From contig NC_003551.1 of the NCBI RefSeq assembly GCF_000007185.1, positions 1,110,001 through 1,142,000 on the forward strand: a stretch of DNA of 32,000 bases, read 5' to 3'. The position numbers and the translations under genes were made by a program. Below, one piece after another: positions 12,808 to 28,991 of this stretch; the stretch's first letter is position 1, and every line of letters starts with the position of its first letter. Under the pieces are notes generated by a model. The model ran no database searches. It was given only the letters and a program-made list of their open reading frames with translations, and was not told where the DNA came from. This DNA is from Methanopyrus kandleri AV19 (GTDB lineage: Archaea > JAADCQ01 > Methanopyri > Methanopyrales > Methanopyraceae).

Positions 12808-14079
12808 CGCGATCGGGTCACCATCCCTCGAGAGCCACTTCCCATACCACTTCCCATCGTAGGGATCGCGCCCCAGCACGCTCTCGTACACTCGACCCTC
12901 CCTCACAAGCCTCCAGCTGCGCAGGGCCGTGTCGAGATTGATGACAAACACCCCTAGGGCCGAGACGGGCGGGATCAGGAGGATCGCCGGGGCCAGGTAC
13001 CACCAGGTGTGGAGAAGTTTCAAGCTCGGCTTCACCCCGATCAGCTTCACCCACGCCGGCGTCACCAGACAGCACACACCGGTCCCGAGCATGCTGACGG
13101 CAACCTCGTAGTGCCTTAACACGTCAGTCAGGGAAAAGCGGCGGTTGAGGTACACGAGCTCGTTCCAGCCGGCTCGGTTGTTCACGACGGACCCCAACAG
13201 CCCGTCCACCTCCTCCGGCTCGGGGGACTCCTCCTTCTCCAAGCACAGGGCCGCGTACACCATTGAGAACTTCTCCCACCACCGAAGGAGGTGGAAGGCC
13301 TTCTCACGATCCTTCAGCAGTCCCTGAGCGTCGTGGAGTACGCACACACCTCGGGTCCTCAGGAAGAGGAAGCCGCAGTCCCGAACCTCCACCTTGCACG
13401 GACCGGGCCTGAAGTACCCGACCCGAATTCTCAAATTCGATGGCTGACCACCCGGCGCCTCCCCGTACCTAACCGGGTAGGAGCTGAGCTCCCGGAACCT
13501 CGAAACCTCCACCTCCCCATCCGTGATCAGCTCGGCCTCGCAGTACCCCAGTGAGAGCAGCGCGATGGAGAGCCTCCGCCGGTCGCCCCTCATCCGGGGG
13601 AATCCGATGAACCCGAGGGTGAGGGCGGCCGGCAGCGCGCTCGACACGGTAAGGCAAAGCATCAACGACGTCAGGGCAAACACGATGAACGACGGGCTAA
13701 ACCACTCCCGCCCGGTTAGGGGTAGGGACCAGACGACGAAAACCGGGAGTGTGGACGATACGAGCAGGGAGAAGAGAATGAGTTCTCCAACCTGAGCACG
13801 TGTGAACAACAGGCGGAACGAGGCCGTGCGACAACGAACGGTACACCGATCGTGAAACGTTACGTCGCGGGGCCCTGGAACCTCCTCACCCTGGAAGATC
13901 GCATCGCATATCCCGAAGGACAACCATACGCTTAAAGCGCACGATCCTATCGATACGGCAAGTACACTCAAGATTACAATTGAATCATATCCACAGATCG
14001 AACCGAGTACTACATAGGCCAAGAGAGAGACGTAACCCAAGCTCGCCAGTAACAGCTTAGATGATCTAGAGATACGCAT
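12763..14079 (-). CDS. LGYCE-domain membrane protein, paralog A
   Basis: 438 aa. It has N-terminal TM helices, then the conserved block 'LSLGYCEAELITDGEVEVSRFRELSSYPVRYG...NLRIRVGYFRPGPCKVEVRDCGFLFLRTRGVCVLHD...REKAFHLLRWWEKFSMVYAALCLEKEE', then two C-terminal TM helices. It is clearly homologous to 27775..28991 and 29876..31204. Confidence 0.8.
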   Translation of the reverse strand: MRISRSSKLLLASLGYVSLLAYVVLGSICGYDSIVILSVLAVSIGSCALSVWLSFGICDAIFQGEEVPGPRDVTFHDRCTVRCRTASFRLLFTRAQVGELILFSLLVSSTLPVFVVWSLPLTGREWFSPSFIVFALTSLMLCLTVSSALPAALTLGFIGFPRMRGDRRRLSIALLSLGYCEAELITDGEVEVSRFRELSSYPVRYGEAPGGQPSNLRIRVGYFRPGPCKVEVRDCGFLFLRTRGVCVLHDAQGLLKDREKAFHLLRWWEKFSMVYAALCLEKEESPEPEEVDGLLGSVVNNRAGWNELVYLNRRFSLTDVLRHYEVAVSMLGTGVCCLVTPAWVKLIGVKPSLKLLHTWWYLAPAILLIPPVSALGVFVINLDTALRSWRLVREGRVYESVLGRDPYDGKWYGKWLSRDGDPIASRHRESESDEPQSG

Positions 14080-14112
14080 CGTCGAAGAGCAGCCCCCAAG
14101 CCGGCGTTACGA

Positions 14113-14406
14113 CTAGTCAAAAAGGGACGAGTCAAGGTCATAGAGGGATGGCCACCTTAATGCGTACAGTGATAGTGCAGTGGTAACAATCACGTACGTT
14201 GCTTCATCGTACTCCTTTTTGATATACTTAGCAACCGCTCCTACAGTCTTAAATAGAGCTCCAATAACGACAAGTGCGGTTAAGATCCCCGTTACATTTA
14301 ATTGTAAAGGTGGCAAGCGGGGTGATACGTACGGCAATATCCACAGTGCAGTGGACCCTATGTTCATCAGGAGATCTCCGAAGGTAATAAGAGTGTCAGG
14401 ATCCAA
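14113..14406 (-). CDS. Small 3-TM membrane protein
   Basis: The 97-aa ORF in AT-rich DNA has hydrophobic segments 'GSTALWILPYV', 'VTGILTALVVIGALFKTVGAV' and 'YVIVTTALSLYAL'. It sits between the truncated giant-gene copy and paralog A on the same strand. Confidence 0.55.
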   Translation of the reverse strand: MDPDTLITFGDLLMNIGSTALWILPYVSPRLPPLQLNVTGILTALVVIGALFKTVGAVAKYIKKEYDEATYVIVTTALSLYALRWPSLYDLDSSLFD

Positions 14407-14450
14407 GCCCCTCTTCTTGCGGACATAATCCCAGAGATTGGCGGCATCAC

Positions 14451-15695
14451 TTATGCCGAGGGGATAGGCCCGCCGAAAGAGGTCACGTTCTCCTCGAAGA
14501 ATTTTTGGAACGCTTCACCTAGCGCTGATATTATGCTCCTCTTATCGTCTGGCTCTAGCGGTGATGCTGCGATCGCCCCGACGAACGTAATAAACACTGA
14601 GTACATTACTTGCGTTATTACGTAGTCAAAATACATTAAGGTGGTGACTCCTTTTTTACCTTTTGTATATACTTTCAGCGTTCCAGTCGTCGGGTCGTAT
14701 TCTGGTACTTCCCCTTTAGTCAACATCTGTATTGAAGACTCTTTGCTAGTTCTTCCGTATGGTTTTACCTCCAATTCCTTTAGCAGTCTCTCTAAGCCCA
14801 GCTTGATGTTGTCAGGCAGTAGTATCCACTCTTCCTCACCGTAATATGGCTCTCCGGTAACCTTAGAAATTACATAATTCTCTATAACCTGTGTTAGTAT
14901 CGAAGCCCTAGTGTTGAGCGCTCGTTGTGTCACCGGATCCGCGTAGAATTCAACCCCAAGTAGTACCGTAGGCGTGTCCAAAGAGAGTCCCAGTCGGACT
15001 TTATTATCATCCTATTTCTCGACCGTAACCTGTGCGACAATCACTCCGAGTAGAGCCCTAACTCAACTCGCTTTATAATCCTAACAGAGCTTGTTTATAG
15101 TTTAATTGTAATAATAAGCTTCGAGAATTAGTAGTAAGCTTGTTAGTACTATCAGGGCTAGTTTCTCATCCTATTTGACCTCGTCCTTGAGCCCAGCTAG
15201 TGCTTGGGCCCATTTGGTAAAGTCCTCTGGGGAGTACTCGAACCCGGGTGGTAGGCATAATACTACGAGGTAGAATTCACTCTCTAACTTAATAGTACGT
15301 AGTGCCTTCGGACCGTACTCCACGGTGATCTCGTTAACTGGTGGAGCACGCTTCCACTCCGGGGGTAGTACCGGATTCCTCAGATCGATGACGGAATACT
15401 CCAGGTCCCCTCGGGTCGTGTGGATTAGTAGTAGACTGGGCTCGGTGAGGTCGATCGCTTGGTCATCGAGCTTGACCCTCACCTTGAGCTCGCACAGTAA
15501 CTCGCTCTTACCCGGTTCCAACAGCGCGTGGTACTCCCTCCCCACTCGGTACGTTAGTCCTAGGAGCCAGACTCGGGCTCGCGGTGGTCGGTCCAAGAGG
15601 ACGAGCTTCTCGATCCTCTGACCGGGTGGTGCTTGGACCCTGAGGAGCCAAGCGCGCACTCTCTTATCATCTCATCTAGCTGCGCCAGCTAAGAC
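14451..15695 (-). pseudogene. Inverted, truncated, stop-interrupted copy of the 3' end of giant gene 20802..26363
   Basis: The minus-strand translation is colinear and in frame with residues encoded at about 25035-26075. For example, 'VRAWLLRVQAPPGQRIEKLVLLDRPPRARVWLLGLTYRVG...' matches 'VRAWFLKVQAPPGQRIKKLVLLDRPPRARAWLLGLTYRVG...', and 'LDTPTVLLGVEFYADPVTQRALNTRASILTQVIENYV' is almost identical. In-frame stops lie at 15672-74, 15171-73, 15102-04, 15081-83, 15063-65 and 15012-14. Two stop-free stretches remain: ORFs 15171..15659 and 14451..14981. The last 65 or so codons (14451 to about 14645) are unrelated to the giant-gene tail. Confidence 0.85.
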
Positions 15696-15913
15696 CGAGC
15701 CCTGTCAACGAGTGTCACTGGGTCCGGCGCCCCCCGATACAGGAAATCGTTGTAATAACCGTAACGATGTGCTCTTACACTGTCGGATTGGAGGCACGCC
15801 CTGAGTACTCTCTGTAAACTTCGGGTTATCACACTCCGAAAACTGTAATGATCATTTAGTCTCGGAGAAGTGAACGTCTGCGCGACTCGGTCGGTTAGGG
15901 GAACATCGCGGGT

Positions 15914-18900
15914 ATGTCCCGGTTGAGAGTAGCTTCAGTGATCATCTGGTTGCTGTGGATCTCCCCACCGGCCTCCGGGTACGTGTGCTGGAGTGTTCCC
16001 GTCGGGGAGTCCGTGACCTCGGTCGAATCATGTGGGGACGCGGCCGTACTGGTGACGAGTTCTAATCGCGTCCTGGTGGCCGAGCTCGACGCGTCGAGCG
16101 TCCGACTCTCGGAGGTCCTCAATTTCCACCTACCCAGTGGAACGAAAGTAGTGTCCGTGATGAGGAGCGGATTAGGACTCGTCTTCGACGCGGGCCGAAT
16201 CCTCGATGACGGCATCGAGGTCTATCGTGGGGTTCTTACACACGGGGATAGAGGATGGAGGGGCGAACTGGTTCGGACCGTAGCCAAGTTCGAGGAGATT
16301 TCCCAACGGGTCAAGTCCGGAGAGTGGCGAGTCCTCGAGGTCTCTAACCTGGCTTCCGACCGTACTGGCGGGCTGTACGCCGCCGCGCTGTTAGAATCCG
16401 TGGACGGGGATTTAATCGTAGAGGTTTGGAATTTACCGGAGAGGAGCGTGATCGCGGACTTCTCGGCGACTGAGGTGAGAAGACTGGCGATAGGGGACGA
16501 AGGCACGCTCTTAGTGGCGTGTGGAGATGGAGTCGCCGTCGTCGACGGTAGGAATGTACGGTTCGTTACCGTCCCCGGTGTCGTCATCGACATGGTGGGA
16601 AGGTGGGTTCTGTACGAGGATTGGCTAGGTTACGCGCTGGGGGAGGTTACGACTTCGGGGTTACGTGAGCTGGTGAGATTACCCGGGCCAGCGCATCGCG
16701 TGACCGTATGGTCGACGGGTGGGGATGCCTACATCCTAGCTTACGGTGGGAACATCGTCTACGTTGTGGACCCCGAGGATCGGACCGTAGTAACGGTGTT
16801 AGACTTACCCGGACGCGTGGAGTTCCTCGCCCCGCCTTTCGTCGTTTACTCCGGTAAAATCGGCGTCTTGTACCTCGCCAAGATTATGGTACAACTGGAA
16901 GAGGGCTTGTGTCCGGCGGTGAAAACGTGGTTCGTGTGGCTGGACTGGTGTGCCGTATACATCGTCGACAGGAAGGTACCTGCGATATACAAAGTAGTTG
17001 AAGTTCGAGACAAATTAGGCCCTAATTGGATTAAAACTAGGAGTGGAGGAGTGACCTTTTGGTACAAACGAGTCTTTTTAAAAAGAGTTTGGCCACGGCA
17101 CCCTACAGAACTTCATCTTGATGATATTGGTATCGTCGTAATAGGAGAACGTAATTCTAAGATACGAGTATACTGCTTAGATGAACGTACTGAGGAAGTA
17201 TTGAAGAATTTGCTTCGTTCGCCGGACGTATGCGATATACTCAATGTGTATCCTGGCTCTGCAGTCTTCATAGTAGATTTCAAATGGAGGGATCAAAGGA
17301 TACCGGCCTTCCGGTTTGTCAGGAAGTCCGGGTGGCTGGTCACGGGGTTCATCGATGAGGACGACGTCTGCCCGAACTCGGATTACGACGACGTCGTCTT
17401 GAGCGTCCCAATCTCACCCCTAACGGCCGCTCACTCGGGGATGCCGGTAATACCCTTACTCTACGGTAAGGACTGGGTATTACTATCGGCACTCCTTCCC
17501 AACTTCGACTGGTGCTGGGATAAAACGAGCGAGTTGAAAGTGTTCGTTAACGGTAAGGAGTCCGAGTTCTACGTGGTGGACTGGTCCAATAAGACCATTC
17601 GTGGTCCGTTCACGAAGTTAAAATTAAAAATTGGTAAAGATAAGCAGTTATTCATACTATTACGCGGCTTGTCCGAACCCGAATCTATCAGGATCGTTCT
17701 CAAGAGGCCTTTGGGACCCGTGTATGAGGGTTATACGGAATACGCCCCGCCTAAGGTCTCGATCTCCCGACCGTCCGCCCGTTTAGTCGAGTATAACGCG
17801 AAGGAAGACAAGGTCACGGTCGCAGTGAGCGCGGAAGTGAGCGTCCGAAACACCGTCATCAGGAGACTGACAATCGAAGTGTTCGACCTCTTCGGTAGGA
17901 CACTAACACGTAAAGTGATGGGGCCTCTACCGCCCGGAAAACACCATATCGAAAAACGACTGAGTTTCATGCCCCCCGAGCACGGCCCGCTCAAGATCAT
18001 CCTCCTCGCCGAGTACGACGGTGACCTGGTTATCGTGAGTGATCGTGAGTTCGTACTCCGGGCGGAGCCCGAGCGGGCGGAGCTAACCGTCTCTTACGAA
18101 CGACCCGGTAGACTCACCGCACGCGTACTGGACTACGGTCGGGATTGGGTCGAACTCCGCGTAGAATCCGAGGAACCCGGGAACCTCCACCTCGAGGACT
18201 CGAAGGGACGACCCGTACCCTACTACGTCCTCGAGGGTAACGAGCTCTCGGGACCGTACGACGGGGAACACCCGCTCGAGTTGGGCACGACACCCGTGAT
18301 CCTCATCCTACGGGACTTGAAACCCGGGGAGGCCTACCGGTTCAAGCTGATACGCGAGGGTAGGATCCCGACCGCGTTCGAGCTCGAGTGCGCCCTCCCC
18401 GAAGCCAACCTCGACGTCGAACTCCTGAGCGGTACCCTCGAGGGACGCTCTCTGACGTTGAAATTCTCAGTCCGGGGCTCCACCGTGAACTCGACGTTCA
18501 AGAGGTTGAACCTAGTCCTGCGAGAGGATGACCGAATCCTCTGGCGTGAGGAGGTCGACCTGGACAATACCACGTGGTTCGACCTACCCTTCGAGACCAC
18601 GGTCGAGGTGGGCGGTGACGAGGGCACCCTCACCCTCGAGGTCACCGCCCATTACGACCACGACACCGTCCTCCCGGAGGGTAACGAGTTCGAGGTTCGA
18701 GAGGCACCCGCGAGGCGGGTCCTGAGGATCGCGTACGGTCGCCCGCACGTCGAACTCGAGGACTACGGACTCAACTGGCTCCTACTCCGAATCCTCCCCT
18801 GGAGACCGGGCGACCTACTCGTACGGGTGAATGGGAAACCAGTAACGTACTATGTGAAACATGGAAACGAGTTCGAGAAACACTCCGAGGACGACCCGTA

Positions 18901-20821
18901 CCACGCGAGCGGGGCGAACGCGGTCGAAGTCCTACTGTACGACCTCGAGAAGCACGGTACGATCACGGTGATCAACCGGTCGAGCACTCTCTCCAGTGCT
19001 AGCACGCTCGATTACGCGCTACCCGAGGGTGTCGAGCTCGCCGCGGAGGTCGTCGGCGGGAGGTACCTCGTCGACGAGGGTAGGCTCACCCTGAACGTTC
19101 GAACCCTCGTGAGCCCGATCGACGTCACGGTGCGTCGGATCATCGCCCGCGTCCTGGACGACTTGGGTGAAATCCTCGGGGAGACGGTGAAGACCGTCGA
19201 GTTGGGACCCGGGATCCACGAGCTCACCCTGCCAATCGAAGTCCGCGTGCACCGAGAGTGCGGTCGCCTCCGGTTACAAGCCCTCGCCGAGTTCGATCAC
19301 GGTACGATCGTGAGAGATCCCGGGGAAGGACCCGTCCCCAACCCGGCCTCGCGCACGATCGAGTTCTCGTACTCGGCCCCGAGCGTCCGCGTGGTGGACC
19401 GGGGGATCGACTGGGTATTACTCGAAGTGACGACTCGGGAGGGTGGTGAACTCGTCGTTCACGTGAACGGTCGGAAGGCCTGGTACTATCTCAAGCGGTC
19501 GAGGGGTGGTGATTGGGAGGGCCCGTACGATCCGACGAGCGTGGGCCCGAACCGTACCGTGCTCGTCCTCGTCCCGGGTGTCCCACCAGAAGGTAGGATC
19601 TCAGTGGTCCTGGGCGGGCGGCTCGAGAGGGTTCGCTCCGTGGAGTACGCGCTTCCCAGTGTAATCGCGCGGGTTGATGTAGAGGACGTCTCGGTGAGCG
19701 GGGAGAAGGTGATCGCGATGATCTCCCTGTGGTTGGAGGTTCTGGGGACTACGGTGAGAAGCATTGGGGTAAGCGTGGACGGCGTGAAGTCGTGGTCGGT
19801 GAGCGCGCTCGAGGACGGTGAACCCCTGCGATTGGACGACCTGGAGCTCGGTGAGGGAGTACATCTGGTCAGGTTATCCATCAAGTTCGTGCCGAAGGAG
19901 CGGGCTGGTACGGTCCCCGTAACCCTGAGGGTCCAGTACGAGGGTGACTCCACGTTCGACCCGGGACGCCGCGAGTTCGTGGAGAGTCCTCTCGTCCTGA
20001 CCTTGAACGTACCCTACGTCCTACCTCAACGGCAGACCTCGAAGGAGTCCGGACCGAGGGGTGGGAGTCCTAAGGTCCCCGAGCGCGGTGGGACCGCAGT
20101 GGACCGAGGGAGCACGACCGCCGGGGAGTCCGGCACCGGGCGGAGCGCCGTCACCGAACCTACGCACGCCTCGACTCGAGTCGAGAGGAGACCGTCCAAC
20201 GAGGAGAGACCGCACGTCGTACGACCCACCCCACCGACCCGATTCCCAATTAGACCCGTCCGGACCGAGACGGGGCACGAGGTCAAGCCGAAGCCCCTCG
20301 AGAAGCTTCCCGAGGCTCTTCCACACCCTTCGAGCTCCCTCCCCGACACCCTCGAAGCGCGGTTGACCCCCGTGCTGGTGAGCCTGTTCGACAGGTTATG
20401 GGACCTGCTCACGAGTCTCCTCTCCCAACCCACGATCACGGGCCACGCCGAGGGTGAACCCACCGCGAAGGTAACCCGGCGTCCCATCGAACACGCGCCG
20501 AGCGAGCCCTCGAGACCCCGAACTCCGACGGGGAGCGCGGCCCTCCAGGGTCCACCCCACGGTACGACCGTACCCCAAGGATACCACCGCGTGGGAGCCC
20601 TCTCGGCGCACGCGCCTCACACCTTCCGGGAAGTGGAAATCCTTAAAACACGAACCCGGGGTTACGCTTACGCAGAGGGAACATCCAGAGTCTCGCGGTC
20701 GCTCACCCGCCTACCACCCACGGGCGTCAACCTGCTAGCCCTCCTCCTGAGCGTATTCGGCGCGCTAACCGGCCTGTACTTGACCCATAGGTCGGTTCGG
20801 GGTGGGGAGGGCGGTGAGTAG
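15914..20821 (+). CDS. Giant secreted surface protein 1 (1635 aa) with a C-terminal LPPTG-plus-TM anchor
   Basis: One uninterrupted 4.9-kb ORF starts at ATG 15914. The signal peptide is 'MSRLRVASVIIWLLWISPPASG'. The N-terminal third has beta-propeller-like strand repeats ('LIVEVWNLPE', 'LLVACGDGVAVVDG', 'YILAYGGNIVYVVDPEDRTVV'). Four tandem modules of about 210 aa follow, then a Pro/Thr/Arg/Ser-rich linker. The C-terminus is 'LPPTGVNLLALLLSVFGALTGLYLTHRSVRGG'. Confidence 0.9.
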   Translation: MSRLRVASVIIWLLWISPPASGYVCWSVPVGESVTSVESCGDAAVLVTSSNRVLVAELDASSVRLSEVLNFHLPSGTKVVSVMRSGLGLVFDAGRILDDGIEVYRGVLTHGDRGWRGELVRTVAKFEEISQRVKSGEWRVLEVSNLASDRTGGLYAAALLESVDGDLIVEVWNLPERSVIADFSATEVRRLAIGDEGTLLVACGDGVAVVDGRNVRFVTVPGVVIDMVGRWVLYEDWLGYALGEVTTSGLRELVRLPGPAHRVTVWSTGGDAYILAYGGNIVYVVDPEDRTVVTVLDLPGRVEFLAPPFVVYSGKIGVLYLAKIMVQLEEGLCPAVKTWFVWLDWCAVYIVDRKVPAIYKVVEVRDKLGPNWIKTRSGGVTFWYKRVFLKRVWPRHPTELHLDDIGIVVIGERNSKIRVYCLDERTEEVLKNLLRSPDVCDILNVYPGSAVFIVDFKWRDQRIPAFRFVRKSGWLVTGFIDEDDVCPNSDYDDVVLSVPISPLTAAHSGMPVIPLLYGKDWVLLSALLPNFDWCWDKTSELKVFVNGKESEFYVVDWSNKTIRGPFTKLKLKIGKDKQLFILLRGLSEPESIRIVLKRPLGPVYEGYTEYAPPKVSISRPSARLVEYNAKEDKVTVAVSAEVSVRNTVIRRLTIEVFDLFGRTLTRKVMGPLPPGKHHIEKRLSFMPPEHGPLKIILLAEYDGDLVIVSDREFVLRAEPERAELTVSYERPGRLTARVLDYGRDWVELRVESEEPGNLHLEDSKGRPVPYYVLEGNELSGPYDGEHPLELGTTPVILILRDLKPGEAYRFKLIREGRIPTAFELECALPEANLDVELLSGTLEGRSLTLKFSVRGSTVNSTFKRLNLVLREDDRILWREEVDLDNTTWFDLPFETTVEVGGDEGTLTLEVTAHYDHDTVLPEGNEFEVREAPARRVLRIAYGRPHVELEDYGLNWLLLRILPWRPGDLLVRVNGKPVTYYVKHGNEFEKHSEDDPYHASGANAVEVLLYDLEKHGTITVINRSSTLSSASTLDYALPEGVELAAEVVGGRYLVDEGRLTLNVRTLVSPIDVTVRRIIARVLDDLGEILGETVKTVELGPGIHELTLPIEVRVHRECGRLRLQALAEFDHGTIVRDPGEGPVPNPASRTIEFSYSAPSVRVVDRGIDWVLLEVTTREGGELVVHVNGRKAWYYLKRSRGGDWEGPYDPTSVGPNRTVLVLVPGVPPEGRISVVLGGRLERVRSVEYALPSVIARVDVEDVSVSGEKVIAMISLWLEVLGTTVRSIGVSVDGVKSWSVSALEDGEPLRLDDLELGEGVHLVRLSIKFVPKERAGTVPVTLRVQYEGDSTFDPGRREFVESPLVLTLNVPYVLPQRQTSKESGPRGGSPKVPERGGTAVDRGSTTAGESGTGRSAVTEPTHASTRVERRPSNEERPHVVRPTPPTRFPIRPVRTETGHEVKPKPLEKLPEALPHPSSSLPDTLEARLTPVLVSLFDRLWDLLTSLLSQPTITGHAEGEPTAKVTRRPIEHAPSEPSRPRTPTGSAALQGPPHGTTVPQGYHRVGALSAHAPHTFREVEILKTRTRGYAYAEGTSRVSRSLTRLPPTGVNLLALLLSVFGALTGLYLTHRSVRGGEGGE
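17465..20020 (+). repeat. Four tandem two-domain modules of about 210 aa inside giant protein 1
   Basis: The recurring pattern is '(D)YG.DW.LL.V...G.L...NG....YY.....L.GPYD' followed by 'EYALP...' and a second beta-like domain ending in '..YDHGT....'. Module landmarks are at 17465 (degenerate), 18131 (DYGRDW), 18761 (DYGLNW) and 19397 (DRGIDW). One further copy occurs in giant protein 2 at about 21340-21960 (DYGRDW at 21360). Confidence 0.7.
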
Positions 20822-23800
20822 GCTCCTCCCCGTGGTCCTGTTCCTAGCCTTGGTATCGGTCGTGCCCGTGGGCGTTCAAGCCCAGTCGTTCAAAGTCTGG
20901 GTCGAGGTGGAACCCTCGGTCCACACGTTCCTCGGGGCCAGCGTGTACCTCGTGGATAACGAGCACAAGGCGTTATACTCCCTGGGCGAATACAGTACCG
21001 TGATGGAAAAGTCCAAACAGCAGACTCAACCGCGACCACTCTACCCGAAGGATCGGAGCGAACCCCTCGGAGAACTCGACCTCGACGCCCTCGGCGTCGC
21101 CGTCTCGTGCTGGTTCGGGGGCGTCGGTTGCTCGGACGATCGGACCATGCGAACCCTCCTCCAGGTACTCGAGATGGACGACGAGGTCCGCGCGCGAGTC
21201 CTCGGGAACGTCTGCCCCACTCTAACCATGTTCGGGAACGTGCCCGTGCACGTGACCGAGTGTCGCGTCGAGAGGACCGAGAACACACTCACCTTCAAAT
21301 TCACCCACTACGGGATCACCGTCAGGATCGTCAAGAGCGAGCTCAAGGTGCAAGTCACCGACTACGGGAGGGACTGGTTACTACTCCACGTCGAACCACC
21401 CTCGAGCGGGAAGCTCTCGATCGAGGAGAACGGTGAGACACTGGCCTTCCACACGCTGACCTCCGACGGGACCCTCTCCGGACCGTACACCGTGCTCGAG
21501 GTGGAGGAAGGCCGCCCCCTCGATCTAGTCGTTAAGGACCTCGAGCCCGGTGAGAAGAGCGCCCTCGATGTAGTCCTTGAGGACGACCTGGGCATCACGG
21601 TCAGGAAACGCGTCGAGTACGCGCTACCACTGGTGAACATCGAGAGCCTCACCGTGGAACCGGGTAACCCGCTCAGAGTGAAGCTCAGGCTGAGCGTGAA
21701 GAACACGATGGTTAAGAGGATCACCGTACGAGTCGTGGACTGCACTACCGGCGGGGTGCTCACCGAGCGGGCGTTCGACGTCGGATTGTCCGAGGGCGAG
21801 CACGAGCTCGAGTACTCGATAGAAACCCCGAACACCACGGACCCGCTCGCCGTGTTCGCCGCGATCGAGTACGATCACGGTACCACGCTGGAGGGCGAGA
21901 AGTTCGAGCCCGTAGAAACCCCCGCGCAGGACTTCACCACGATCGTACCCTCGACAGGCACGCCCGAGGTCATGCTCGACGTCGAGACCCCGGAACGAGC
22001 CCATCTGGGACTACCCGTCGAGATGACGGTACACGTTCGGCTAGGCCGGATCCCACTCTCCACGGGAGAAATCCGAGTAACCACCGAGGACGGGAAAACC
22101 CTCGCCCGAACCACCGTCTCGAACGGCGAGGCGAGAATGCTCATCCTCCCCACTCACACTGGCGACGTGGAACTCCACATCGAGTACTACCTAGGCTCGA
22201 GGAAACTGGCCGAGAGGGAACTCACCCTCCACGTCTCGAACGAGTTCCACGGGTTCACCGCCGACATCGTGAGCCCGGGCAACCTGGGCTCCCTGGGCTA
22301 CGACCTCCGCGGGTCGTACATCCCCGAGAGGAAATACCCCGCGAAGGACGAGCCCATGTTGTACATCTACAGGACCTGGTGGGATGAATACTACCCGTTC
22401 CTCGTCCAACCCGCGGACCGCCCGAACGCCCTCCTCGCGAACGGCCTGAAGATCACCCTACCCGAACCCGCCGACACCGTGTACATGCTAACCCTACCAG
22501 TACGCGTCCACTACCCGATCAGGGTCACGATCGAGGACTCGAGCGGGGAGCGCGTGACCAGGAAACTCTGGTGGCTGAACTGGGACTGGCAATGGTGGTG
22601 GGACCACGGTTGGAGCGTGTACCACCTCAGGCTCACGGCCCGAGACCTCGGTCTAAAGGACATCACCGAACTCGAGTTCGACGTGCCGAACGGACTCCTC
22701 TGGATCCTCGCGCTGACCTACCGCTCGGGCGACGCGTACAAGGCCCTGATCGAACCCGGAAAGGGCGTGACCCTCTACCGCGAGCCCGGACCGGTCGAGA
22801 TCGAGCTCGAGGGCTGGCCCGCGGGCTCGGACCACGAGGTAGTCTGGAGGAAGGTCGGGGACGAGTGGATCCCCTTCTACCTGTGCCCGAAGGATCACCC
22901 AAACGCACTCCCCGCAGACCACCTACTCCTCCACATACCCCACGACGCCGACCGAGCCTACATCCTACTCTACGCGCGCGAGGACACGACCGCCGAGTAC
23001 GGTATCCTAACACTCAAGACCACCGTCCCGCTCGAACTCCCCTGGAAGTCGAACGTACCACGCTCCGACGACTTCGACCACCTGGCAGTCCTCGAGATCC
23101 CCTGCAAACCGAGCTCGCTAGCACGATCACGCGGTAGGGTGCTCCTCGTCAACGCCCCGAACGCGTACGTCATCGCCATCACCTACCACCTGGGGGACAA
23201 GTACGAGGCACACGCTCCAGACGGCGAGAAAATCACCCTCACGAGCAAGGACCTCCCACACTACCACAACGCGAACATCCTCCGAGAGACCATCGACTCC
23301 GAGGAGCACGGGTTACCACCCGAACTCTGGCACGAGGGCGTAGCCTACCACTGGCTCCCCGTACCCGGGACAGTACTCCACGTGCAAATCCCCTTCTACC
23401 TCGCGCCGAAGGACGCCGAGAACGCGATCAAGGTCGAGAACGACCTGAAGATCCAACTCCCCGAGGGGACCAAGGCCGTCTACCTCCTCTACATCGCGAC
23501 CGACCAACGCGACCCCAAGGACCGCCCCGCGAGCAAGTACCACCTCGAGATCACCCTCGACGACGGGCGGACCGTCCAAGCCATCGTACTACTACCCGAT
23601 TATCTAGCGCTCACTCGGGACCCGAGTACGGCCCTACTAGCCATGGACTACGCGCGCACGAACCCCACGGGCTTAATCCTCATCACCCAACGACCCGCCT
23701 GGCACCTCCCGGTACTACTCAAGGACGACCAACCCGAGGAGGCGCACGCGTACGCCTGGGTCCTAACGATCGCGACGGGCGAGGAGCACACGATCCGCGA

Positions 23801-26363
23801 GCTCACCCTCCACCCACCCGAGACCGGCCGACTCTACCTCCTGGCGATCACGGCACAGGCGAAGGACGCTAGACTATACGCCGTCCTCGGGCCGGGACAG
23901 TGGGTCGAGTTGAGCCCGCCCGGGGAGGTCTGGCACGGTCACACGGTGGACGTCGTCCACCCGGGTGAGACTCGAGAGCAGTTGCCGATCGAGGCATGGC
24001 ACCGGCGGGTCCTCGTCAAGACCCCGGACGAGGCGATACCCCTGCTCCTAGCCCGCCCGGACGGTCCGAACGCGACCCCGATCGCGACCCGAGAGTCGAC
24101 TCTTAACATAATCCTACCCAAACCCGCGGACGCCGTGTACTTGCTGTACCTAGCGACCGATTACGAGGAGGCGAGCACGCCGCCCACGCTACCCCTACTC
24201 GCCCTCCTCGACGATGGGAAACTAACCGGGACACTCGTCCGGATCGCTCCCGCGGATCGGAAGCCCTCGGACCTCCTACCCGCCCTCGCCTGGGCCGAAC
24301 CACTCGTCGAGGAGGGTGAGGACCTCACCGTCCGACAGGCACCCGTCATCACGTGGGATCGCGTGTATAAGCCCACGGGGACGGTAGTGCTCGAGGGTCG
24401 GACCGCCTGGCTGCTCGAGCTCAAGCCCGAGCACGGGAGGATCAAGGCCCTGACCTTCCTGCCCACCGACACGCGGCTCACGGTGTACCTCCTCGCCGTG
24501 ACCCTCCGCATTGGAGATTACTACTACGCGCTCGAGGGCGGGAAGACCATCCGCCCACTGGACGCGGGTGAGGCCGATACTACAATCGAGACCGCTTGGA
24601 AGCCCGAGCGCGCGCCCGAACTGCCGAGGACGTTCTCATGGCCCGGGTTCTCGGTGGACCCGGCCGAGAAACCCTACGATTATCGTCATCACGTGCGCGT
24701 GCTCGAGGACGAGGTCGTGATCACCCTCGGGGACGAGCCGGTACCGGTGCGGCTGACGGGTAGGCTGGCGCCCGTGGTACGCCGGGAGGTCGAACTACCC
24801 GAGCCCGCGGACGCGGTCTACCTGCTTTACCTGACCGGGCACGCTCCGTCCACTTCGCCGGCCCGACTCCTCGTCGAGTACGAGGACGGTGGCAGGGCGC
24901 TCGTCCTCGTCAATCTAGCGAGCGAGGTGGGATTGTACGAGAGTCCGGCTCGAACCGTGAGTGCGTGGGTTAGGCCCGTCCTCGGTTGGCACAACGGGGC
25001 GCCTACAGTGGTCCAACAGCCCGCGCTCGAGCTCGAACGCGATGATGGTAAGAGAGTACGCGCTTGGTTCCTCAAGGTCCAAGCACCACCCGGTCAGAGG
25101 ATCAAGAAGCTCGTCCTCCTAGACCGACCACCACGAGCCCGAGCCTGGCTCCTAGGACTAACGTACCGGGTTGGGAGTGAATACTACGCGCTGTTAGAAC
25201 CGGGTAAAGGCGAGTTATTGGACGAGCTCAAGGTGAGGGTTAAGCTCGGTGACCAGGCGATCGACCTCACCGAGCCTAGCCTATTGCTAATCCACACGAC
25301 CCGAGAAGACTTAGAATACTCGATCATCGACTTGAGAAACCCGGTATTACCCCCGGAGTGGAAGCGAGCACCACCGGTTAGTGAGGTCACCGTGGAGTAC
25401 GGTCCTAGAATACTGCGCACTGTCAAGCTAGAAGGCGAGTCCTACCTAGCGGTATTATGCCTACCACCCGGGTTCGAGTACTCCCCAGAGGACTTTACCA
25501 AATGGGCCCAAGCACTAGCCGAGCTCAAGGATAGGGTTAAACAAGATGAGAAAGATGAGAAATTAGCCCTAGTAGTGCTAACGAGCTCACTACCGATCCT
25601 CGAAGCTTATTACTACGATCAGGTGATAAGCAAGCTCTGTGAGGATTACAAGGCGAGTTGGGTTAGGATATTACCCGGTGTGATCATCGCGCAGGTTACG
25701 ATCGAGAAACGGAGTGATAACAAAGTCCGACTGGGACTCTCCCTGGACACGCCTACCGTCCTACTCGGGGTTGAATTTTACGCGGACCCGGTGACACAAC
25801 GAGCACTCAACACTAGGGCTTCGATACTAACACAAGTCATTGAGAACTATGTAGTTTCCAAAATCACCGGAGAACCGTACTATAGTGAGGAAGAATGGGC
25901 TTTATTACCTGATAATGTTAGACAAGATTTGGAGAAAATACTGAAGGAGCTAGGAGTAGAACCACACGGGGAGACTAACAAACAATCCTCAATACAAGAA
26001 CTGATAGAAGGAGAAATACCAGAATACAACCCAACAACAGGAACGATAGAAATAGAGGTAGAAAAGAAGAAAGGAGTAGCAGGTGTTGCGTTATGGTTGA
26101 TATCTACGTGGCTTTCCTTAATCGATGTCGCTTCAAGTCCTCCTCATGAGTGGTGGGAATGGTTCCTTTTAGGTTTAAGTATGGGGGTTATTGGTTGGCT
26201 TGGAACAATCCATATTGGATTTGCAATTATTTCAATTGGGATTTCTATATTCATCATATGGTACGAATATCGCGAATACGGTTCTACTCCATCCCCGTTT
26301 GGATGGGCTAGTTTAGCAATATCCATCGGGTCGACTATTAAGGATATCATGAAGATGTTATAA
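20802..26363 (+). CDS. Giant secreted surface protein 2 (1853 aa) with a multi-TM C-terminus
   Basis: One uninterrupted 5.6-kb ORF. GTG 20802 (or GTG 20814) overlaps the stop of giant gene 1 (20819-20821). The signal peptide is 'RLLPVVLFLALVSVVPVGVQAQS'. It carries one module of the giant-1 type, then five tandem modules of a second type. The AT-rich 3' end encodes 3-4 TM helices ('VALWLISTWLSLI', 'WFLLGLSMGVIGWLGTIHIGFAIISIGISIFIIW'). Confidence 0.9.
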   Translation: MGRAVSRLLPVVLFLALVSVVPVGVQAQSFKVWVEVEPSVHTFLGASVYLVDNEHKALYSLGEYSTVMEKSKQQTQPRPLYPKDRSEPLGELDLDALGVAVSCWFGGVGCSDDRTMRTLLQVLEMDDEVRARVLGNVCPTLTMFGNVPVHVTECRVERTENTLTFKFTHYGITVRIVKSELKVQVTDYGRDWLLLHVEPPSSGKLSIEENGETLAFHTLTSDGTLSGPYTVLEVEEGRPLDLVVKDLEPGEKSALDVVLEDDLGITVRKRVEYALPLVNIESLTVEPGNPLRVKLRLSVKNTMVKRITVRVVDCTTGGVLTERAFDVGLSEGEHELEYSIETPNTTDPLAVFAAIEYDHGTTLEGEKFEPVETPAQDFTTIVPSTGTPEVMLDVETPERAHLGLPVEMTVHVRLGRIPLSTGEIRVTTEDGKTLARTTVSNGEARMLILPTHTGDVELHIEYYLGSRKLAERELTLHVSNEFHGFTADIVSPGNLGSLGYDLRGSYIPERKYPAKDEPMLYIYRTWWDEYYPFLVQPADRPNALLANGLKITLPEPADTVYMLTLPVRVHYPIRVTIEDSSGERVTRKLWWLNWDWQWWWDHGWSVYHLRLTARDLGLKDITELEFDVPNGLLWILALTYRSGDAYKALIEPGKGVTLYREPGPVEIELEGWPAGSDHEVVWRKVGDEWIPFYLCPKDHPNALPADHLLLHIPHDADRAYILLYAREDTTAEYGILTLKTTVPLELPWKSNVPRSDDFDHLAVLEIPCKPSSLARSRGRVLLVNAPNAYVIAITYHLGDKYEAHAPDGEKITLTSKDLPHYHNANILRETIDSEEHGLPPELWHEGVAYHWLPVPGTVLHVQIPFYLAPKDAENAIKVENDLKIQLPEGTKAVYLLYIATDQRDPKDRPASKYHLEITLDDGRTVQAIVLLPDYLALTRDPSTALLAMDYARTNPTGLILITQRPAWHLPVLLKDDQPEEAHAYAWVLTIATGEEHTIRELTLHPPETGRLYLLAITAQAKDARLYAVLGPGQWVELSPPGEVWHGHTVDVVHPGETREQLPIEAWHRRVLVKTPDEAIPLLLARPDGPNATPIATRESTLNIILPKPADAVYLLYLATDYEEASTPPTLPLLALLDDGKLTGTLVRIAPADRKPSDLLPALAWAEPLVEEGEDLTVRQAPVITWDRVYKPTGTVVLEGRTAWLLELKPEHGRIKALTFLPTDTRLTVYLLAVTLRIGDYYYALEGGKTIRPLDAGEADTTIETAWKPERAPELPRTFSWPGFSVDPAEKPYDYRHHVRVLEDEVVITLGDEPVPVRLTGRLAPVVRREVELPEPADAVYLLYLTGHAPSTSPARLLVEYEDGGRALVLVNLASEVGLYESPARTVSAWVRPVLGWHNGAPTVVQQPALELERDDGKRVRAWFLKVQAPPGQRIKKLVLLDRPPRARAWLLGLTYRVGSEYYALLEPGKGELLDELKVRVKLGDQAIDLTEPSLLLIHTTREDLEYSIIDLRNPVLPPEWKRAPPVSEVTVEYGPRILRTVKLEGESYLAVLCLPPGFEYSPEDFTKWAQALAELKDRVKQDEKDEKLALVVLTSSLPILEAYYYDQVISKLCEDYKASWVRILPGVIIAQVTIEKRSDNKVRLGLSLDTPTVLLGVEFYADPVTQRALNTRASILTQVIENYVVSKITGEPYYSEEEWALLPDNVRQDLEKILKELGVEPHGETNKQSSIQELIEGEIPEYNPTTGTIEIEVEKKKGVAGVALWLISTWLSLIDVASSPPHEWWEWFLLGLSMGVIGWLGTIHIGFAIISIGISIFIIWYEYREYGSTPSPFGWASLAISIGSTIKDIMKML
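22250..25215 (+). repeat. Five tandem modules (about 160-225 aa each) of an unassigned repeat in giant protein 2
   Basis: Each module has 'W...PF.L.P.D.PNA....L.I.LP.PADAVYLLY' and ends in '.LLA(L/I)TY..GD.Y.AL..PG'. Landmarks are PADTVYMLTL (about 22470), HDADRAYILLY (about 22950), EGTKAVYLLY (about 23470), KPADAVYLLYL (about 24125) and EPADAVYLLYL (about 24805). Confidence 0.65.
25035..26075 (+). repeat. Right arm of the roughly 1-kb inverted duplication (partner about 14645-15695 on the minus strand)
   Basis: The nucleotide and protein alignment to the left copy was done by eye. Most codons are identical. One tract is perfectly identical for 68 nt (25452-25519 equals the reverse complement of 15196-15263). 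Confidence 0.85.
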
Positions 26364-27101
26364 ATGATATATTATAATGACGCCACTGGTAGTGCTTTGG
26401 GTGGTGTTCTCATGAGCGTTCGAACCGTGTCACTGCTCACGTTGTTGTTACTGATTGCACCGGTGGCAGCTGATATCCCACCTCACGCCTCCGAGAAGGA
26501 GCTGGAGGATCCGAACTGGTGGTGGGAACATCATCGGGGACCCGTTTGGGCGACCCGGTACCCGGAAGTCTGGAACAAGATCGTGCTCAAGTACGAGGAT
26601 CCGGAAGATCGGGAGAAGGTCTCGAAGTTAGGAGAGGCACTCCGTCATCCCCCGAGAGGGTTTGAGCTTTGGATATGGTTCATACTGGGGATGGCGTTAG
26701 TGCTACCGCCTGCCTCGCGAGTCGGATTTCTTAAGTTCTTTAAGTACAAGACGTGGGAGGCTCCTGAGTGGCTGATCCAATACTGTGGGACGATAATCCT
26801 GAGTATGGCCTACCTCGCGATCATCGCGATGGGTAGGGCTTACGTCCTCAATTGTTCCGTGTACTACGTGATGATCGGGAAGCTCAGTGAGGCTTACCGG
26901 ACGTTTTACCTATGGACGGCGTACGCCGAGCCGTTCCTTCTAGCATTCAACGCGGCTATACCGTTGATCCTAGTGTCCAAGCTCGAGTTGCCGTACCGTC
27001 GGCTTAAGGCGGGTATCCTGATCGCGTGGCTGGCGTCTCTGGTGCTGAACGTTCACATGCACTCCGAAAGTCTCACACTGTTATCGACCCTCGGGGGATG
27101 A
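26364..27101 (+). CDS. Signal-peptide 4-TM membrane protein with a Trp-rich ectodomain (paralog 1); likely start ATG 26412
   Basis: The ORF starts directly after the giant-gene stop. The in-frame ATG 26412 gives signal peptide 'MSVRTVSLLTLLLLIAPVAADIPP'. Next comes 'DPNWWWEHHRGPVWATRYPEVWNKIVLKYEDPEDREKVSKLGEAL', followed by four hydrophobic helices. Confidence 0.75.
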   Translation: MIYYNDATGSALGGVLMSVRTVSLLTLLLLIAPVAADIPPHASEKELEDPNWWWEHHRGPVWATRYPEVWNKIVLKYEDPEDREKVSKLGEALRHPPRGFELWIWFILGMALVLPPASRVGFLKFFKYKTWEAPEWLIQYCGTIILSMAYLAIIAMGRAYVLNCSVYYVMIGKLSEAYRTFYLWTAYAEPFLLAFNAAIPLILVSKLELPYRRLKAGILIAWLASLVLNVHMHSESLTLLSTLGG

Positions 27102-27104
27102 TGG

Positions 27105-27752
27105 TTGGGCCACTCGGTAGTTCTAGCACTATCGATCATCTTCGTCGTCGCGCTGTGCCCATGCCATGCGGGGTCGTGGAGCGTCGATCCCGAGATCGTC
27201 GAGCATCCGTGGTTGTGGAACCGGTACGTGGTCAGTAAGTACCACGATCCGGTCGAACGGTCGAAGGTGGTCGGTCTCCGAGAGGAGCTGCTGGATTACC
27301 GGAAGGCGCGCGTGACGGTGGTATTCCTGTGTACGGGCGTTTGGGTCATCGGGATCGCACTCCTACTGGTGAAGAACAGGAGGGCCCCCAAGGAAGCGTT
27401 AACGGAACACTTCTTCCGGTTGGCGTCCCCACTGGGCTTCGCCGGTCTCGCCATCGTTATAGCATCGATTGGGGAGTTCAACGCACTCCTCGCTCTGTCC
27501 AAGGGTGAGGGTTATCGGGTTGCGGTCGAGACGATCCGCGCGTACGGCGTGTACGGGCCCGCGGTGATCGCCCTATTAGCGATCGCCGTAATACTCGTGA
27601 CGGTATCCCGGCGTGCTCCGAAGGTCGACCTACCCTTCCTACCCAAGACGGGCTTACCCCTCAGCAGGGTATCGGCCATCATAGCCTGGACGTCGGTACT
27701 ACTCACGTCCGCGCTCATAATCTCGTACACCGTAGAACTGTTCTCAAGGTAG
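27105..27752 (+). CDS. Signal-peptide 4-TM membrane protein (paralog 2 of 26364..27101)
   Basis: TTG 27105 lies 5-6 nt after 'GGGGGAT'. The signal peptide is 'MGHSVVLALSIIFVVALCPCHAGS'. The segment 'VEHPWLWNRYVVSKYHDPVERSKVVGLREEL' aligns with the paralog-1 ectodomain, and the four-helix architecture is the same. Confidence 0.75.
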   Translation: MGHSVVLALSIIFVVALCPCHAGSWSVDPEIVEHPWLWNRYVVSKYHDPVERSKVVGLREELLDYRKARVTVVFLCTGVWVIGIALLLVKNRRAPKEALTEHFFRLASPLGFAGLAIVIASIGEFNALLALSKGEGYRVAVETIRAYGVYGPAVIALLAIAVILVTVSRRAPKVDLPFLPKTGLPLSRVSAIIAWTSVLLTSALIISYTVELFSR

Positions 27753-27774
27753 ATCGCGCGATAGACTGCGACGG

Positions 27775-28991
27775 ATGACGACAGGGGGTGGGATCATCGG
27801 TGGTCGACGGGCATCCCGTCGGGTTAAGAGGCCGTGGGATTGGTACGAGAGGGCTAACTTAACGACGTACGTTATCGTCGGCATGATGTTCGCGATCCTG
27901 ATCGCGTGTAACTGGCGGGAATTCGCGCCTCTCACCCCTATGGCCGTGGGATTCTTCCTCGCGGCATTGTGGATAGTCGGTACTAGGACACACCCGAATC
28001 CAGGAGATCTGAGGCGTCTTGACTTGCGTACGGTCTATTATCGCACGGCCTCAGCCTGTCACCCGGACTGGTACTGACCGCGCTCGCGGTACCCGTGATC
28101 GTGGTCATAACCGCCGCGATATCACTCCAACCGAAGGCTTCTCACGCCACGCTCGCTGCTACCGAGTTCCTTATACTAATCCTCGCCCTCAGCGCCGTGA
28201 ACTACGTCCTCTTACCGTTGTTGGGTTTCGGTGCCGTCTGGGTCTTCAGGGTGGGAAAGAGGCTCTACCTGGTCTCCCTCGGGTACTGCGAGGGTGAGAC
28301 GATCCTCGAGCCGGGTGTGGAGGTCGAACTCTCGGGGTTCCAGGTCCTCGCGGAGTTCCCCCTGGAGTCGGAGTACCACGGTCGATTGTGGATCAGGATC
28401 GGGTACTTCCCACCGGGGATCCACTGGGTCGAGTTACCCGAGCGCGGTTTCTTCTTCCTCCGAACCCGGGGCGTGTGTGCGCTGCGGGACCCGTACCTGC
28501 CCCGGGACGACGAGGGAGCCCTCGAGATGGCCCGCTTCCTGGAGAAACTCTCGATGGTGTACGCGGCCGTGTGCTTAGAGGAAGGGGGCCCGAACCCCGG
28601 GCGCGCGCGGAAGATCATGAAACACGTGAAGAACAACTCCAGGTGGGGAACGACGGTGAGGTACTTCGGGGTCAAGGTGCCGCTCGGGCGGTTCACCACC
28701 AGTCAGTCGACCACCGTAACGGTGGCCGTATTGGTGGCCCTCTCGCTGGTGTCGGCACTCGCGAGGGGTGAGCCGCTGGGGCCGATGGGCGCACCGATCC
28801 TCGTCCTTTCCTGGCTGTTGGCATGCGTGCTGCTGGCCCTACCGGTGGCCTGGCGCAACAGGAGGGCGGTCAAGACCGGACGCTGGTACCGGGTGATCTT
28901 CGAGCGCCACCGCGTGGAAGAGGCTATCGACAAGGCACGGGACTGGAACTGGTTCCCCGACCTCGAGAGGGTCGACCCACTAGAGGATTGA
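27775..28991 (+). pseudogene. LGYCE-domain membrane protein, paralog B, split by a frame change near 28062-28066
   Basis: ORF 27775..28077 supplies the N-terminal two TM helices. Its 'RTVYYRTASACHP' aligns with 'RTLMWYPTASFDR' of paralog C. The protein continues in another frame, open from 28023 ('...GLVLTALAVPVIVVITAAISLQP...'), into ORF 28095..28991, which carries 'LVSLGYCEGETILEPGVEVELSGF...LWIRIGYFPPGIHWVELPERGFFFLRTRGVCALRD...LEKLSMVYAAVCLEE'. The joined length of about 405 aa matches paralogs A and C. Confidence 0.7.

Follow-up and report, generated by a model that had tools for sequence, protein, structure and literature searches.

The 32,000-nt stretch of the Methanopyrus kandleri AV19 genome analyzed here (contig NC_003551.1, positions 1,110,001 to 1,142,000; hereafter the window) carries two giant genes, g1 and g2, which are predicted to encode secreted envelope proteins. 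Comparison with related sequences showed that the C-terminal end of g2, together with the genes behind it, forms an exchangeable cassette in which at least five unrelated classes of tail follow the same junction. We read the region as a lineage-specific, recombination-driven polymorphic envelope locus that would display fibrous surface proteins and may serve strain-specific recognition or adhesion, a reading to which we give about an even chance. The novelty is the polymorphic cassette organization, built from unrecognized families, and not the fold of the modules. Both gene products are 100% identical to M. kandleri AV19 database proteins (1,694,969-bp contig). Since 2002 GenBank has labeled them "MK-5 family" and the flanking membrane proteins "MK-9 family"; the pair is therefore annotated yet uncharacterized.

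Unrelated tails behind a common junction

The relatives used throughout were loci L001-L004, obtained by exact-protein look-up, loci L005-L010, obtained by scanning metagenomes with an alignment of the g2 pre-tail (the region preceding the junction), and L011. Nine C-termini were collected, and in each the junction reads P(E/Q)Y(N/D)P(T/A)T. Past a short charged spacer they separate into five classes that are unrelated by BLAST. Class A comprises g2 of AV19 and the L004 tail, which are 83% identical to each other, and class B an orphan copy in AV19 (see below) and L011. The tails of L001 (C), L007/P0005 (D), and L009 (D') are 34-40% identical to one another and form the third class, while L006 (E) and L008 (F) each represent their own. 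Seven tails and the pre-tail were searched against Pfam without a significant match at E<=10.

The replacement is sharp. Over the 6023 nt that cover the end of g1 and the g2 body, L006 and L007 agree at 99.2%, after which identity drops to about 50-60%. The break falls at the equivalent of window position ~25200, and therefore the entire pre-tail, the tail, and the downstream genes differ between the two. Base composition changes along the same path, with a GC content of 0.62-0.69 in the g2 body, 0.40 at 25801-26400, and 0.24-0.41 where L007-L009 carry their tails and downstream genes. In L004 (GCA_027065205.1, JAMOOU010000005.1), a hybrid gene at 439-4833 joins a g1-like ectodomain and its Pro-rich linker, at PEYNPATGT, to tail A, and g2 is absent from that locus. 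The 4.7 kb downstream are 92% identical to 26017-30755 of the window, and the g1 part 72%. Between AV19 and L004, synonymous divergence (dS) amounts to 1.3 across the g1 body, 0.15 across tail A, and 0.04-0.05 across the genes for the 245- and 215-aa proteins behind g2. For L011 and the AV19 orphan the values are 0.375 ahead of the junction, 0.039 within tail B, and 0.007 within the MK-9 gene. Taken without a baseline of strain divergence, these contrasts show mosaicism but not the direction of exchange, which counts as a first reservation about the favored reading.

Membrane proteins flank the pair on both sides. A previous inspection of the letters and open reading frames (ORFs) of this DNA, hereafter the sequence-only reading, had taken them for paralogs, and rightly so: the products of 12763-14079 (-), 28095-28991 (+), and 29876-31204 (+) are one family, MK-9. 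The ORFs 27775-28077 and 28095-28991 are probably one disrupted or split MK-9 gene. Hydropathy predicts about four transmembrane (TM) segments near the N-terminus of MK-9 proteins and two near the C-terminus; the family shares a conserved core (GY.EAE...GYF..G...DC.F.FLRTRG...WEK.SMVYAALCL), with invariant residues that include E193, the RTRG motif, E279, and S282; no match was found in Pfam, PDB, or PADLOC. Wherever the sequence behind a tail was long enough, the family hidden Markov model (HMM) detected an MK-9 member there. This member directly succeeds tails C, D, D', and F and the L010 remnant, and it also follows tail B; for tails A and E it lies behind two to four small multi-TM genes. 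The 245- and 215-aa proteins of AV19 matched nothing in Pfam or PADLOC, and their copies follow tail A in L004 at 90-96% identity, next to the 83% of the tails themselves. Related tails thus pair with related partners, as also in D and D' (tails 40%, MK-9 proteins 52% identical), whereas the MK-9 proteins paired with unrelated tails are 25-35% identical.

Two more polytopic ORFs lie to the left, at 9001-10284 (-, 427 aa) and 10281-11423 (-, 380 aa, about 42% GC). Their layout is MK-9-like, with TM segments around a central soluble part. No family was matched by either, the MK-9 HMM giving E 0.065 for the 427-aa protein, and they may be very distant paralogs of the cassette type. A 336-aa ORF at 11797-12807 (+), whose N-terminal half is rich in Gly and Arg and whose C-terminal part has four TM segments, is convergent with the 438-aa MK-9 gene, and its region is conserved at 80% in L008 (2101-4364).

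A second copy of the g2 end lies inverted to the left of g1 (Table 1). It can be read in one frame as the g2 C-terminal region from "DDKRVRAWLL" onward, and after PEYDPTTGT passes into a tail that has no relation to the g2 tail. As a 5'-truncated g2 3' end with an alternative tail and its own MK-9 gene, the left flank is best described as a decayed orphan cassette. Five in-frame stops are clustered at 15171-14985, and one frameshift lies at ~14454-14478. Selenocysteine or other recoding of these stops was considered and rejected in view of their number, their types (at least two, TAG and TAA), the frameshift, and the AT-rich tract. The metagenomic L011 holds the same element intact, 94% identical at the nucleotide level to 15671-13511. 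Its 649-aa ORF (P0025) starts inside the contig, has no signal peptide, and runs through the motif into a tail of ~197 aa. Because L011 shows this intact tail, the "97-aa ORF" at 14113-14406 of AV19 could be recognized as the remainder of tail B, severed by the frameshift. A PIN-domain gene (L011 545-1105, -) stands directly upstream of the intact orphan, which therefore has a different genomic context from the AV19 one; an MK-9 gene follows the element in both. Orphan cassettes are thus represented by the AV19 pseudogene, L011 (intact), and L010, and no remnant beyond 14113-15671 was found in the window. Pre-tail comparisons gave omega values of 0.13-0.16, from which we conclude that the orphans derive from functional genes.

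The two copies form an inverted repeat whose arms directly enclose g1 with its upstream region and the g2 body; going outward, either arm leads into a tail and partner genes of its own. This exact geometry is what an inversion switch in AV19 would have: recombination between the arms would flip everything between them and join g2 to tail B and the 438-aa MK-9 protein. We nevertheless hold such a switch to be very improbable. The left arm carries the five nonsense codons and the frameshift, the arms are just 80.6% identical, and no recombinase gene or specific site was seen. Moreover, the upstream region of L001 lacks an inverted copy, the other relatives showed no inverted variant, and the L011 orphan lies in another context, beside the PIN gene.

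The same observations recall contact-dependent inhibition (CDI) and Rhs loci of bacteria, in which a VENN or PxxxxDPxGL junction precedes the variable end, a cognate gene lies downstream, orphan modules occur, and the cassettes are AT-rich. The MK-5 locus likewise combines a constant, giant secreted region with a conserved junction motif (PEYNPTTGT in Methanopyrus), unrelated C-terminal classes, directly adjacent genes that co-vary with them, orphans that are truncated at the 5' end and remain homologous ahead of the junction, and an AT-rich cassette behind a GC-rich body. On this basis, g2 could be the delivery filament of a contact-dependent toxin-immunity system, the tail (or pre-tail and tail) a membrane-active toxin, MK-9 and the 245- and 215-aa proteins the immunity functions, and the orphans a reservoir for switching. 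Membrane-active toxins with integral-membrane immunity proteins do exist, as in CdiA-CT(EC93) and the pore-forming colicins. We consider this explanation unlikely, however. No tail matches a toxin or any other Pfam family, PADLOC gave no match, and the MK-5 locus is without beta-helix, YD repeats, CdiB, a type VI secretion system or other delivery partner, release protease, or pre-toxin domain. Its tails are hydrophobic or amphipathic, and the MK-9 proteins, at ~440 aa and about six TM segments, are far larger than typical immunity proteins, so that any immunity role of theirs is putative. In addition, tail A stands in place of the g1 TM anchor in L004, which suggests an anchoring role, and both g1 and g2 look permanently tethered.

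Table 1. Coordinates of the g1/g2 locus and its cassettes in the window
Feature	Position	Strand	Remarks
MK-9 member, 438 aa, polytopic	12763-14079	-	Partner of tail B
Decayed orphan cassette	14113-15671	-	5'-truncated inverted copy of g2 pre-tail plus tail class B
Inverted repeat, ~1.03 kb	14647-15671 (left arm); 25044-26077 (right arm)		80.6% identity; repeat search and BLAST
g1 (MK-5 family, AAM02361.1/WP_011019516.1)	15914-20821	+	1635 aa, ATG start; predicted giant secreted envelope protein
g1 N-terminal head, ~300 aa after signal peptide	15980-16879	+	NCBI name "YncE family"; propeller unconfirmed
Domain X	16880-17431 (g1 aa 323-506); paralog in g2 aa 31-172	+	Motif (F)EDW.DFDYNDV
g1 four tandem ~212-aa modules	17432-18079, 18080-18718, 18719-19354, 19355-20005	+	HMM, AlphaFold2, Foldseek
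g1 Pro/Thr/Arg/Ser-rich low-complexity linker, ~235 aa	20006-20710	+	P31, T27, R25, S20 in 231 aa
g1 C-terminal tripartite signal	20711-20821	+	LPPTG, hydrophobic segment, HRSVR, acidic tail
g2 (MK-5 family, AAM02362.1/WP_011019517.1)	20802-26363	+	1853 aa (GTG 20802) or 1849 aa (GTG 20814)
g2 single module copy	21318-21938	+	aa 173-379; HMM independent E-value 4e-82
g2 probable extra Ig-like domain	21987-22202	+	Weak Big_3_5 match, E 0.023, below Pfam cut-off; outside module
g2 five ~155-225-aa units, beta-rich, jelly-roll-like	22212-22781, 22782-23243, 23244-23915, 23916-24560, 24561-25235	+
g2 conserved pre-tail, ~260 aa	25236-26018	+	No Pfam match; homology tract common to orphan copies; forms inverted-repeat arm
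Junction motif PEYNPTTGT	26019-26045	+	Strains' sequences unrelated beyond motif
g2 tail class A	26046-26363	+	Charged spacer, then 2-3 hydrophobic Trp-rich segments; GC 0.40
Paralogous multi-TM pair, signal peptides	26364-27101 (245 aa); 27105-27752 (215 aa)	+	Packed directly behind g2
Split MK-9 member (probable)	27775-28077 (100 aa); 28095-28991 (298 aa)	+	HMM positions 17-87 and 111-415
MK-9 member, 442 aa	29876-31204	+	Family HMM

Architecture of g1 and g2

The two overlapping ORFs of 1635 and 1853 aa described by the sequence-only reading were found exactly as such in the ORF list. The 20-nt overlap given there applies with the g2 start at GTG 20802 and becomes 8 nt with the NCBI start at GTG 20814, the g1 stop being TAG 20819-20821. 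The pair is conserved in L001 with an overlap of 4 nt. In a more distant Methanopyrus-type lineage (P0005, L006, and L007) g1 and g2 are fused into a single ORF, which is 3465 aa long in P0005 and spans 1-7284 in L007 and 3-7002 in L006; a frameshift within the Pro-rich linker of the L006 fusion may be an assembly error. At the fusion joint, hydropathy indicates a hairpin in which the loop RGLKRSK, short and basic, connects the TM helix of g1 with the signal-like helix of g2, a topology that would keep both ectodomains outside the cell. Upstream of g1 we found no archaeal TATA-like box (<=2 mismatches to TTTATATA), and there are no T runs >=6 on the + strand of 15600-31300. These absences are compatible with a long transcription unit, for which they are weak evidence, and g1 and g2 are probably a co-oriented, overlapping, co-translated pair.

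Nonsynonymous-to-synonymous ratios (dN/dS) of 0.30 for g1 (AV19 vs. its L004 ortholog) and 0.23 for g2 (AV19 vs. L001) place both genes under purifying selection. Such values bear on the idea that the ORFs are non-functional or mis-annotated, either chance frames in GC-rich DNA or decaying lineage-specific genes. Both are indeed ORFans without a known family, in a GC-rich window where spurious long ORFs are common. The idea is scarcely credible and effectively refuted by conservation and dN/dS: orthologs of similar length and domain order occur in several samples, the repeated module receives a confident fold prediction, and signal peptides and anchors are conserved.

The ~210-aa module that had been counted four times in g1 and once in g2 was recovered by an HMM far beyond chance. 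The HMM was seeded with three g1 copies and the g2 copy, and the first g1 copy, outside the seed, was found at an independent E-value of 1.8e-20. Together with piecewise BLAST it delimits the g1 copies to aa 507-722, 723-935, 936-1147, and 1148-1364. All three g1 orthologs carry four copies and both g2 orthologs one (1e-27 to 1e-66). The stretch proposed earlier for structural analysis, 18100-18740, corresponds to module 2 (18080-18718). Its AlphaFold2 model, computed from a 10-sequence alignment of copies, shows two consecutive all-beta domains with high confidence (mean pLDDT, the predicted local distance difference test, 93.3; pTM, the predicted TM-score, 0.82). The DYG.DW motif maps to the first strands of domain 1 of this model and EYALP to the hinge between the domains. 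Foldseek against PDB returned 53 matches at E<=1e-3, the best being tandem fibronectin type III (FN3) and immunoglobulin (Ig) domains. The top structures at E ~1e-4 were tenascin 1qr4, 7y6e, sDscam FNIII, fibronectin, and transglutaminase C-terminal barrels. TM-scores against the tandem FN3/Ig structures are ~0.3, low because the inter-domain angle differs.

By its modeled fold, then, the module is an ordinary tandem Ig/FN3-like pair, and by sequence it is a private family. Pfam and NCBIfam contain no sequence family for it, and a PDB profile search gave 0 matches. The statement that the modules cannot be assigned to a named family is right for sequence, and running Foldseek on a module model, as had been proposed, retrieves an ordinary Ig/FN3-like fold. 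Searching 1.84 billion representative proteins with the module profile gave 8 matches, 5 of them Methanopyrus-type proteins. The other 3, bacterial proteins with Ig repeats (SprB, He_PIG, Gmad2), match weakly and in a single domain, and we set them aside as generic. Among the sequences searched, the double-Ig module appears lineage-restricted, its copies all lying in proteins of the Methanopyrus type (g1/g2 orthologs, MK-5 family).

The homology between the two proteins is longer than the module that had been noticed. Residues 323-702 of g1 align to residues 31-358 of g2 (E 7e-15), and therefore a region of ~150-180 aa, which we call domain X, precedes the module in both. DUF4114 (PF13448) matches domain X weakly in 3 of 4 orthologs (best E 0.027, below the gathering threshold). 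The AV19 domain X gave no DUF4114 match, and just its motif DxDYNDV resembles that family.

Upstream of domain X, the g1 head is among the most divergent parts of the protein, with ~40% identity between orthologs. Neither the N-terminal 506 aa of g1 nor a 4-ortholog profile matched Pfam, NCBIfam, or PDB, apart from a sole weak match to ScyE_fam (E 0.15). At the other end, the linker is 22-24% identical between orthologs and leads into a C-terminus that reads RLPPTG-VNLLALLLSVFGALTGLYL-THRSVRGGEGGE. The pattern L(P/L)PTG followed by a TM segment and basic residues is kept in three orthologs, as LPPTG in AV19 and P0005. The envelope of M. kandleri consists of pseudomurein covered by a non-regular protein layer (PMC4243693). 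One LPxTG protein has been reported in M. kandleri (PMC2812497), and the orthologous groups that another study lists as specific to pseudomurein archaea, its Methanopyrales genome among them, include a "Sortase E" (PMC11915815). Given these reports and the conserved tripartite signal, sortase-type covalent attachment of g1 to the pseudomurein wall is plausible.

The overall plan of g1 resembles that of MSCRAMM-type LPXTG adhesins: signal peptide, ligand-type head, tandem Ig-like stalk, Pro/Thr-rich wall-spanning segment, and an end made of LPPTG, a hydrophobic stretch, and basic residues, in a host whose pseudomurein wall is peptidoglycan-like and which, according to PMC11915815, has a sortase E homolog. 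It differs from them in its domains, which belong to no described adhesin family, in the LLPTG of one ortholog, and in an AV19 end that anchor HMMs miss; wall attachment is here a prediction from sequence. No S-layer family of Pfam or NCBIfam was matched by g1 or g2, and the results speak neither for nor against an S-layer role. It could be argued that both are plain structural components of the outer layer or generic adhesins, and that their polymorphism is a by-product of repeat recombination and of diversifying selection driven by viruses or the environment, with no tail-partner logic. Giant Ig-rich proteins with a wall-spanning linker and anchors, above a pseudomurein sacculus that bears a non-regular protein layer, would fit this, as would the strong divergence of the distal g1 parts. 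M. kandleri also reportedly makes biofilms together with Pyrococcus, going by the title of Schopf et al. 2008. We find this explanation improbable, since it leaves unaccounted for the sharpest replacement, which affects the membrane-proximal tail and the downstream membrane genes and not the exposed domains, as well as the conserved junction motif, the orphan cassettes with intact frames, and the co-variation of tails with MK-9 proteins.

In g2, the single module is followed by a second repeat that had gone unnoticed, namely five units at aa 471-1478, also present in the ortholog P0002. They matched no family in Pfam, NCBIfam, PADLOC, or PDB-sequence searches. The closest PDB folds to the modeled unit are AziU2/AziU3 (TM-score 0.4-0.5), followed by weak lectin, carbohydrate-binding-module, and capsid jelly rolls; a function read from the AziU2/U3 likeness was set aside, the model being of moderate confidence and the literature searched yielding no account of the AziU2/U3 fold. 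A search of viral folds in BFVD returned nothing at E<=1e-3, so a viral receptor-binding origin of the unit is unsupported. Identity between g2 of AV19 and P0002 is 62% at the N-terminus, 85% in the pre-tail, and 15% in the tail, and the pre-tail is the most conserved part of g2 between AV19 and L001. Hydropathy places two to three hydrophobic segments within the last ~95 aa of g2.

A proposed polymorphic envelope locus and its parallels

In the reading we favor, g1 would begin with a signal peptide, a variable head, and domain X, go on with a stalk of four double Ig/FN3-like modules, and finish with a Pro/Thr-rich linker that spans the wall and the LPPTG, TM, and basic end. In g2, a signal peptide and domain X would be followed by one double-Ig module, a single Ig-like domain, and five jelly-roll-like units, and then by the pre-tail, the junction, and a hydrophobic or amphipathic tail. 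Both proteins would be exported by Sec and displayed jointly on the cell surface, the g2 tail sitting in the membrane and paired with the MK-9 partner encoded by its cassette. Homologous recombination in the pre-tail and junction tract would then swap cassettes, between strains or from silent copies, so that the surface complex would differ from strain to strain and could serve strain-specific recognition or adhesion. The envelope apparatus envisaged by the sequence-only reading agrees with the export signals, the beta-rich modeled ectodomains, the g1 linker, the anchors, and the outside-facing fusion; the polymorphic cassettes, the orphan copy, and the LPXTG-like signal had escaped it.

Several points weigh against the reading as a whole. 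Hydropathy is compatible with the signal peptides and membrane-anchoring C-termini claimed previously, the g1 N-terminus being signal-like and the N-terminal hydrophobic signal of g2 clear; these calls, like those of the TM segments, come from a simple hydropathy scan. Tail D lacks any strongly hydrophobic stretch, which means that an anchoring role is not evident for all tails. The anchor HMMs of Pfam and NCBIfam do not match the g1 C-terminus of AV19 or L001, those of P0005 match only weakly (E 0.026 and 0.12, far under cut-offs), and the L001 motif is LLPTG rather than LPPTG. The NCBI name "YncE family" implies a beta-propeller in g1, which our sequence searches left unconfirmed, and the model of the g2 unit, a beta-rich sandwich, reached a pLDDT of 70.9 and a pTM of 0.74. 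Moreover, g2 varies next to the membrane and not at its distal end, an unusual arrangement if recognition were its only function. We infer the physical pairing of tails with MK-9 proteins from gene order and co-variation in ~8 loci, and the surface localization and interaction of g1 and g2 from their sequences. Finally, several loci are short contigs from metagenomes or metagenome-assembled genomes, in which assembly chimeras are possible.

The nearest archaeal parallel is the VARTIG modules of Thermococcales, for which no analog was found outside that order (Makarova et al. 2021, PMC8416519). No other hypervariable module based on Ig proteins is known to have been described. The VARTIG survey would miss the MK-5 locus because it searched for Pfam-detectable Ig domains. 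Both systems are archaeal and lineage-restricted, and both combine a large secreted multi-Ig protein, whose C-terminal region is replaced by recombination, with variable sets of downstream genes in a layout like that of polymorphic toxin systems. They have no sequence relation, and neither arCOG07710 nor CARDB was detected in the MK-5 locus. Whereas the variable part of VARTIG is an Ig domain, that of the MK-5 locus is a non-Ig pre-tail and a hydrophobic tail, helical judging from sequence; the MK-5 locus also has polytopic MK-9 proteins downstream and two giant genes rather than one.

A possible use of the orphans is suggested by pilE/pilS of Neisseria, in which silent cassettes provide antigenic variation. 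The likeness lies in one expressed gene accompanied by promoterless, 5'-truncated copies with a conserved tract and alternative variable ends. In contrast to pilS, there are one or two orphans per MK-5 locus, that of AV19 is dead, and the variable part stands at the membrane end with its own partner genes. No evidence of switching within a strain was found at the MK-5 locus.

A bolder reading would make the locus a contact-dependent identity or conflict system built wholly of lineage-specific parts, in which the giant g1/g2 fiber presents or delivers a membrane-active C-terminal cassette, the MK-9 protein of that cassette neutralizes or recognizes it, and silent 5'-truncated cassettes, the inverted AV19 copy among them, renew the specificity by recombination. 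We regard this as rather doubtful, if somewhat less so than a toxin-immunity system of the bacterial type. If true, it would be a functional analog of CDI/Rhs or of kin recognition in a hyperthermophilic methanogen growing up to 110°C, and mechanisms of cell-cell recognition and conflict are poorly known in archaea. If tails and MK-9 proteins are cognate pairs, they would represent a new membrane-level specificity system, and polymorphic-cassette architectures would be convergent across domains. The locus repeats a VARTIG-like evolutionary logic in an unrelated, deeply branching methanogen with a pseudomurein wall. It also offers a candidate for sortase anchoring of a protein to pseudomurein, as well as candidates for constituents of the uncharacterized outer protein layer in Methanopyrus. 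As no profile library recognizes its families, Pfam-based surveys would miss it. In the literature searched we found no description of the polymorphic MK-5/MK-9 cassette organization, and the comparison of Methanopyrus SNP6 and KOL6 does not mention the g1/g2 proteins.

Other features of the window

GC content is very uneven along the window, ranging from 0.40 to 0.72 in windows of 300-1000 nt. Low-GC patches coincide with the CRISPR (clustered regularly interspaced short palindromic repeats) array described below, 10001-11000, 13800-15300, 16800-17700 (g1 domain X and module 1), and 25500-26400 (g2 pre-tail and tail). Foreign DNA and local mutational bias are the candidate causes.

The CRISPR array occupies 1458-2535 and contains 12 copies of a 36-nt repeat (GTTTCATTACCCGTATTATTACGGGTTAATTGCGAG), which Rfam classifies as CRISPR-DR11. 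Its start-to-start spacing of 85-108 nt is unusually long and implies spacers of ~49-72 nt. Between the array and the surface-protein locus lie genes for a major facilitator superfamily transporter (4332-5444, +, E 5e-17) and a DUF1678 protein (5624-6253, +, E 1e-101).

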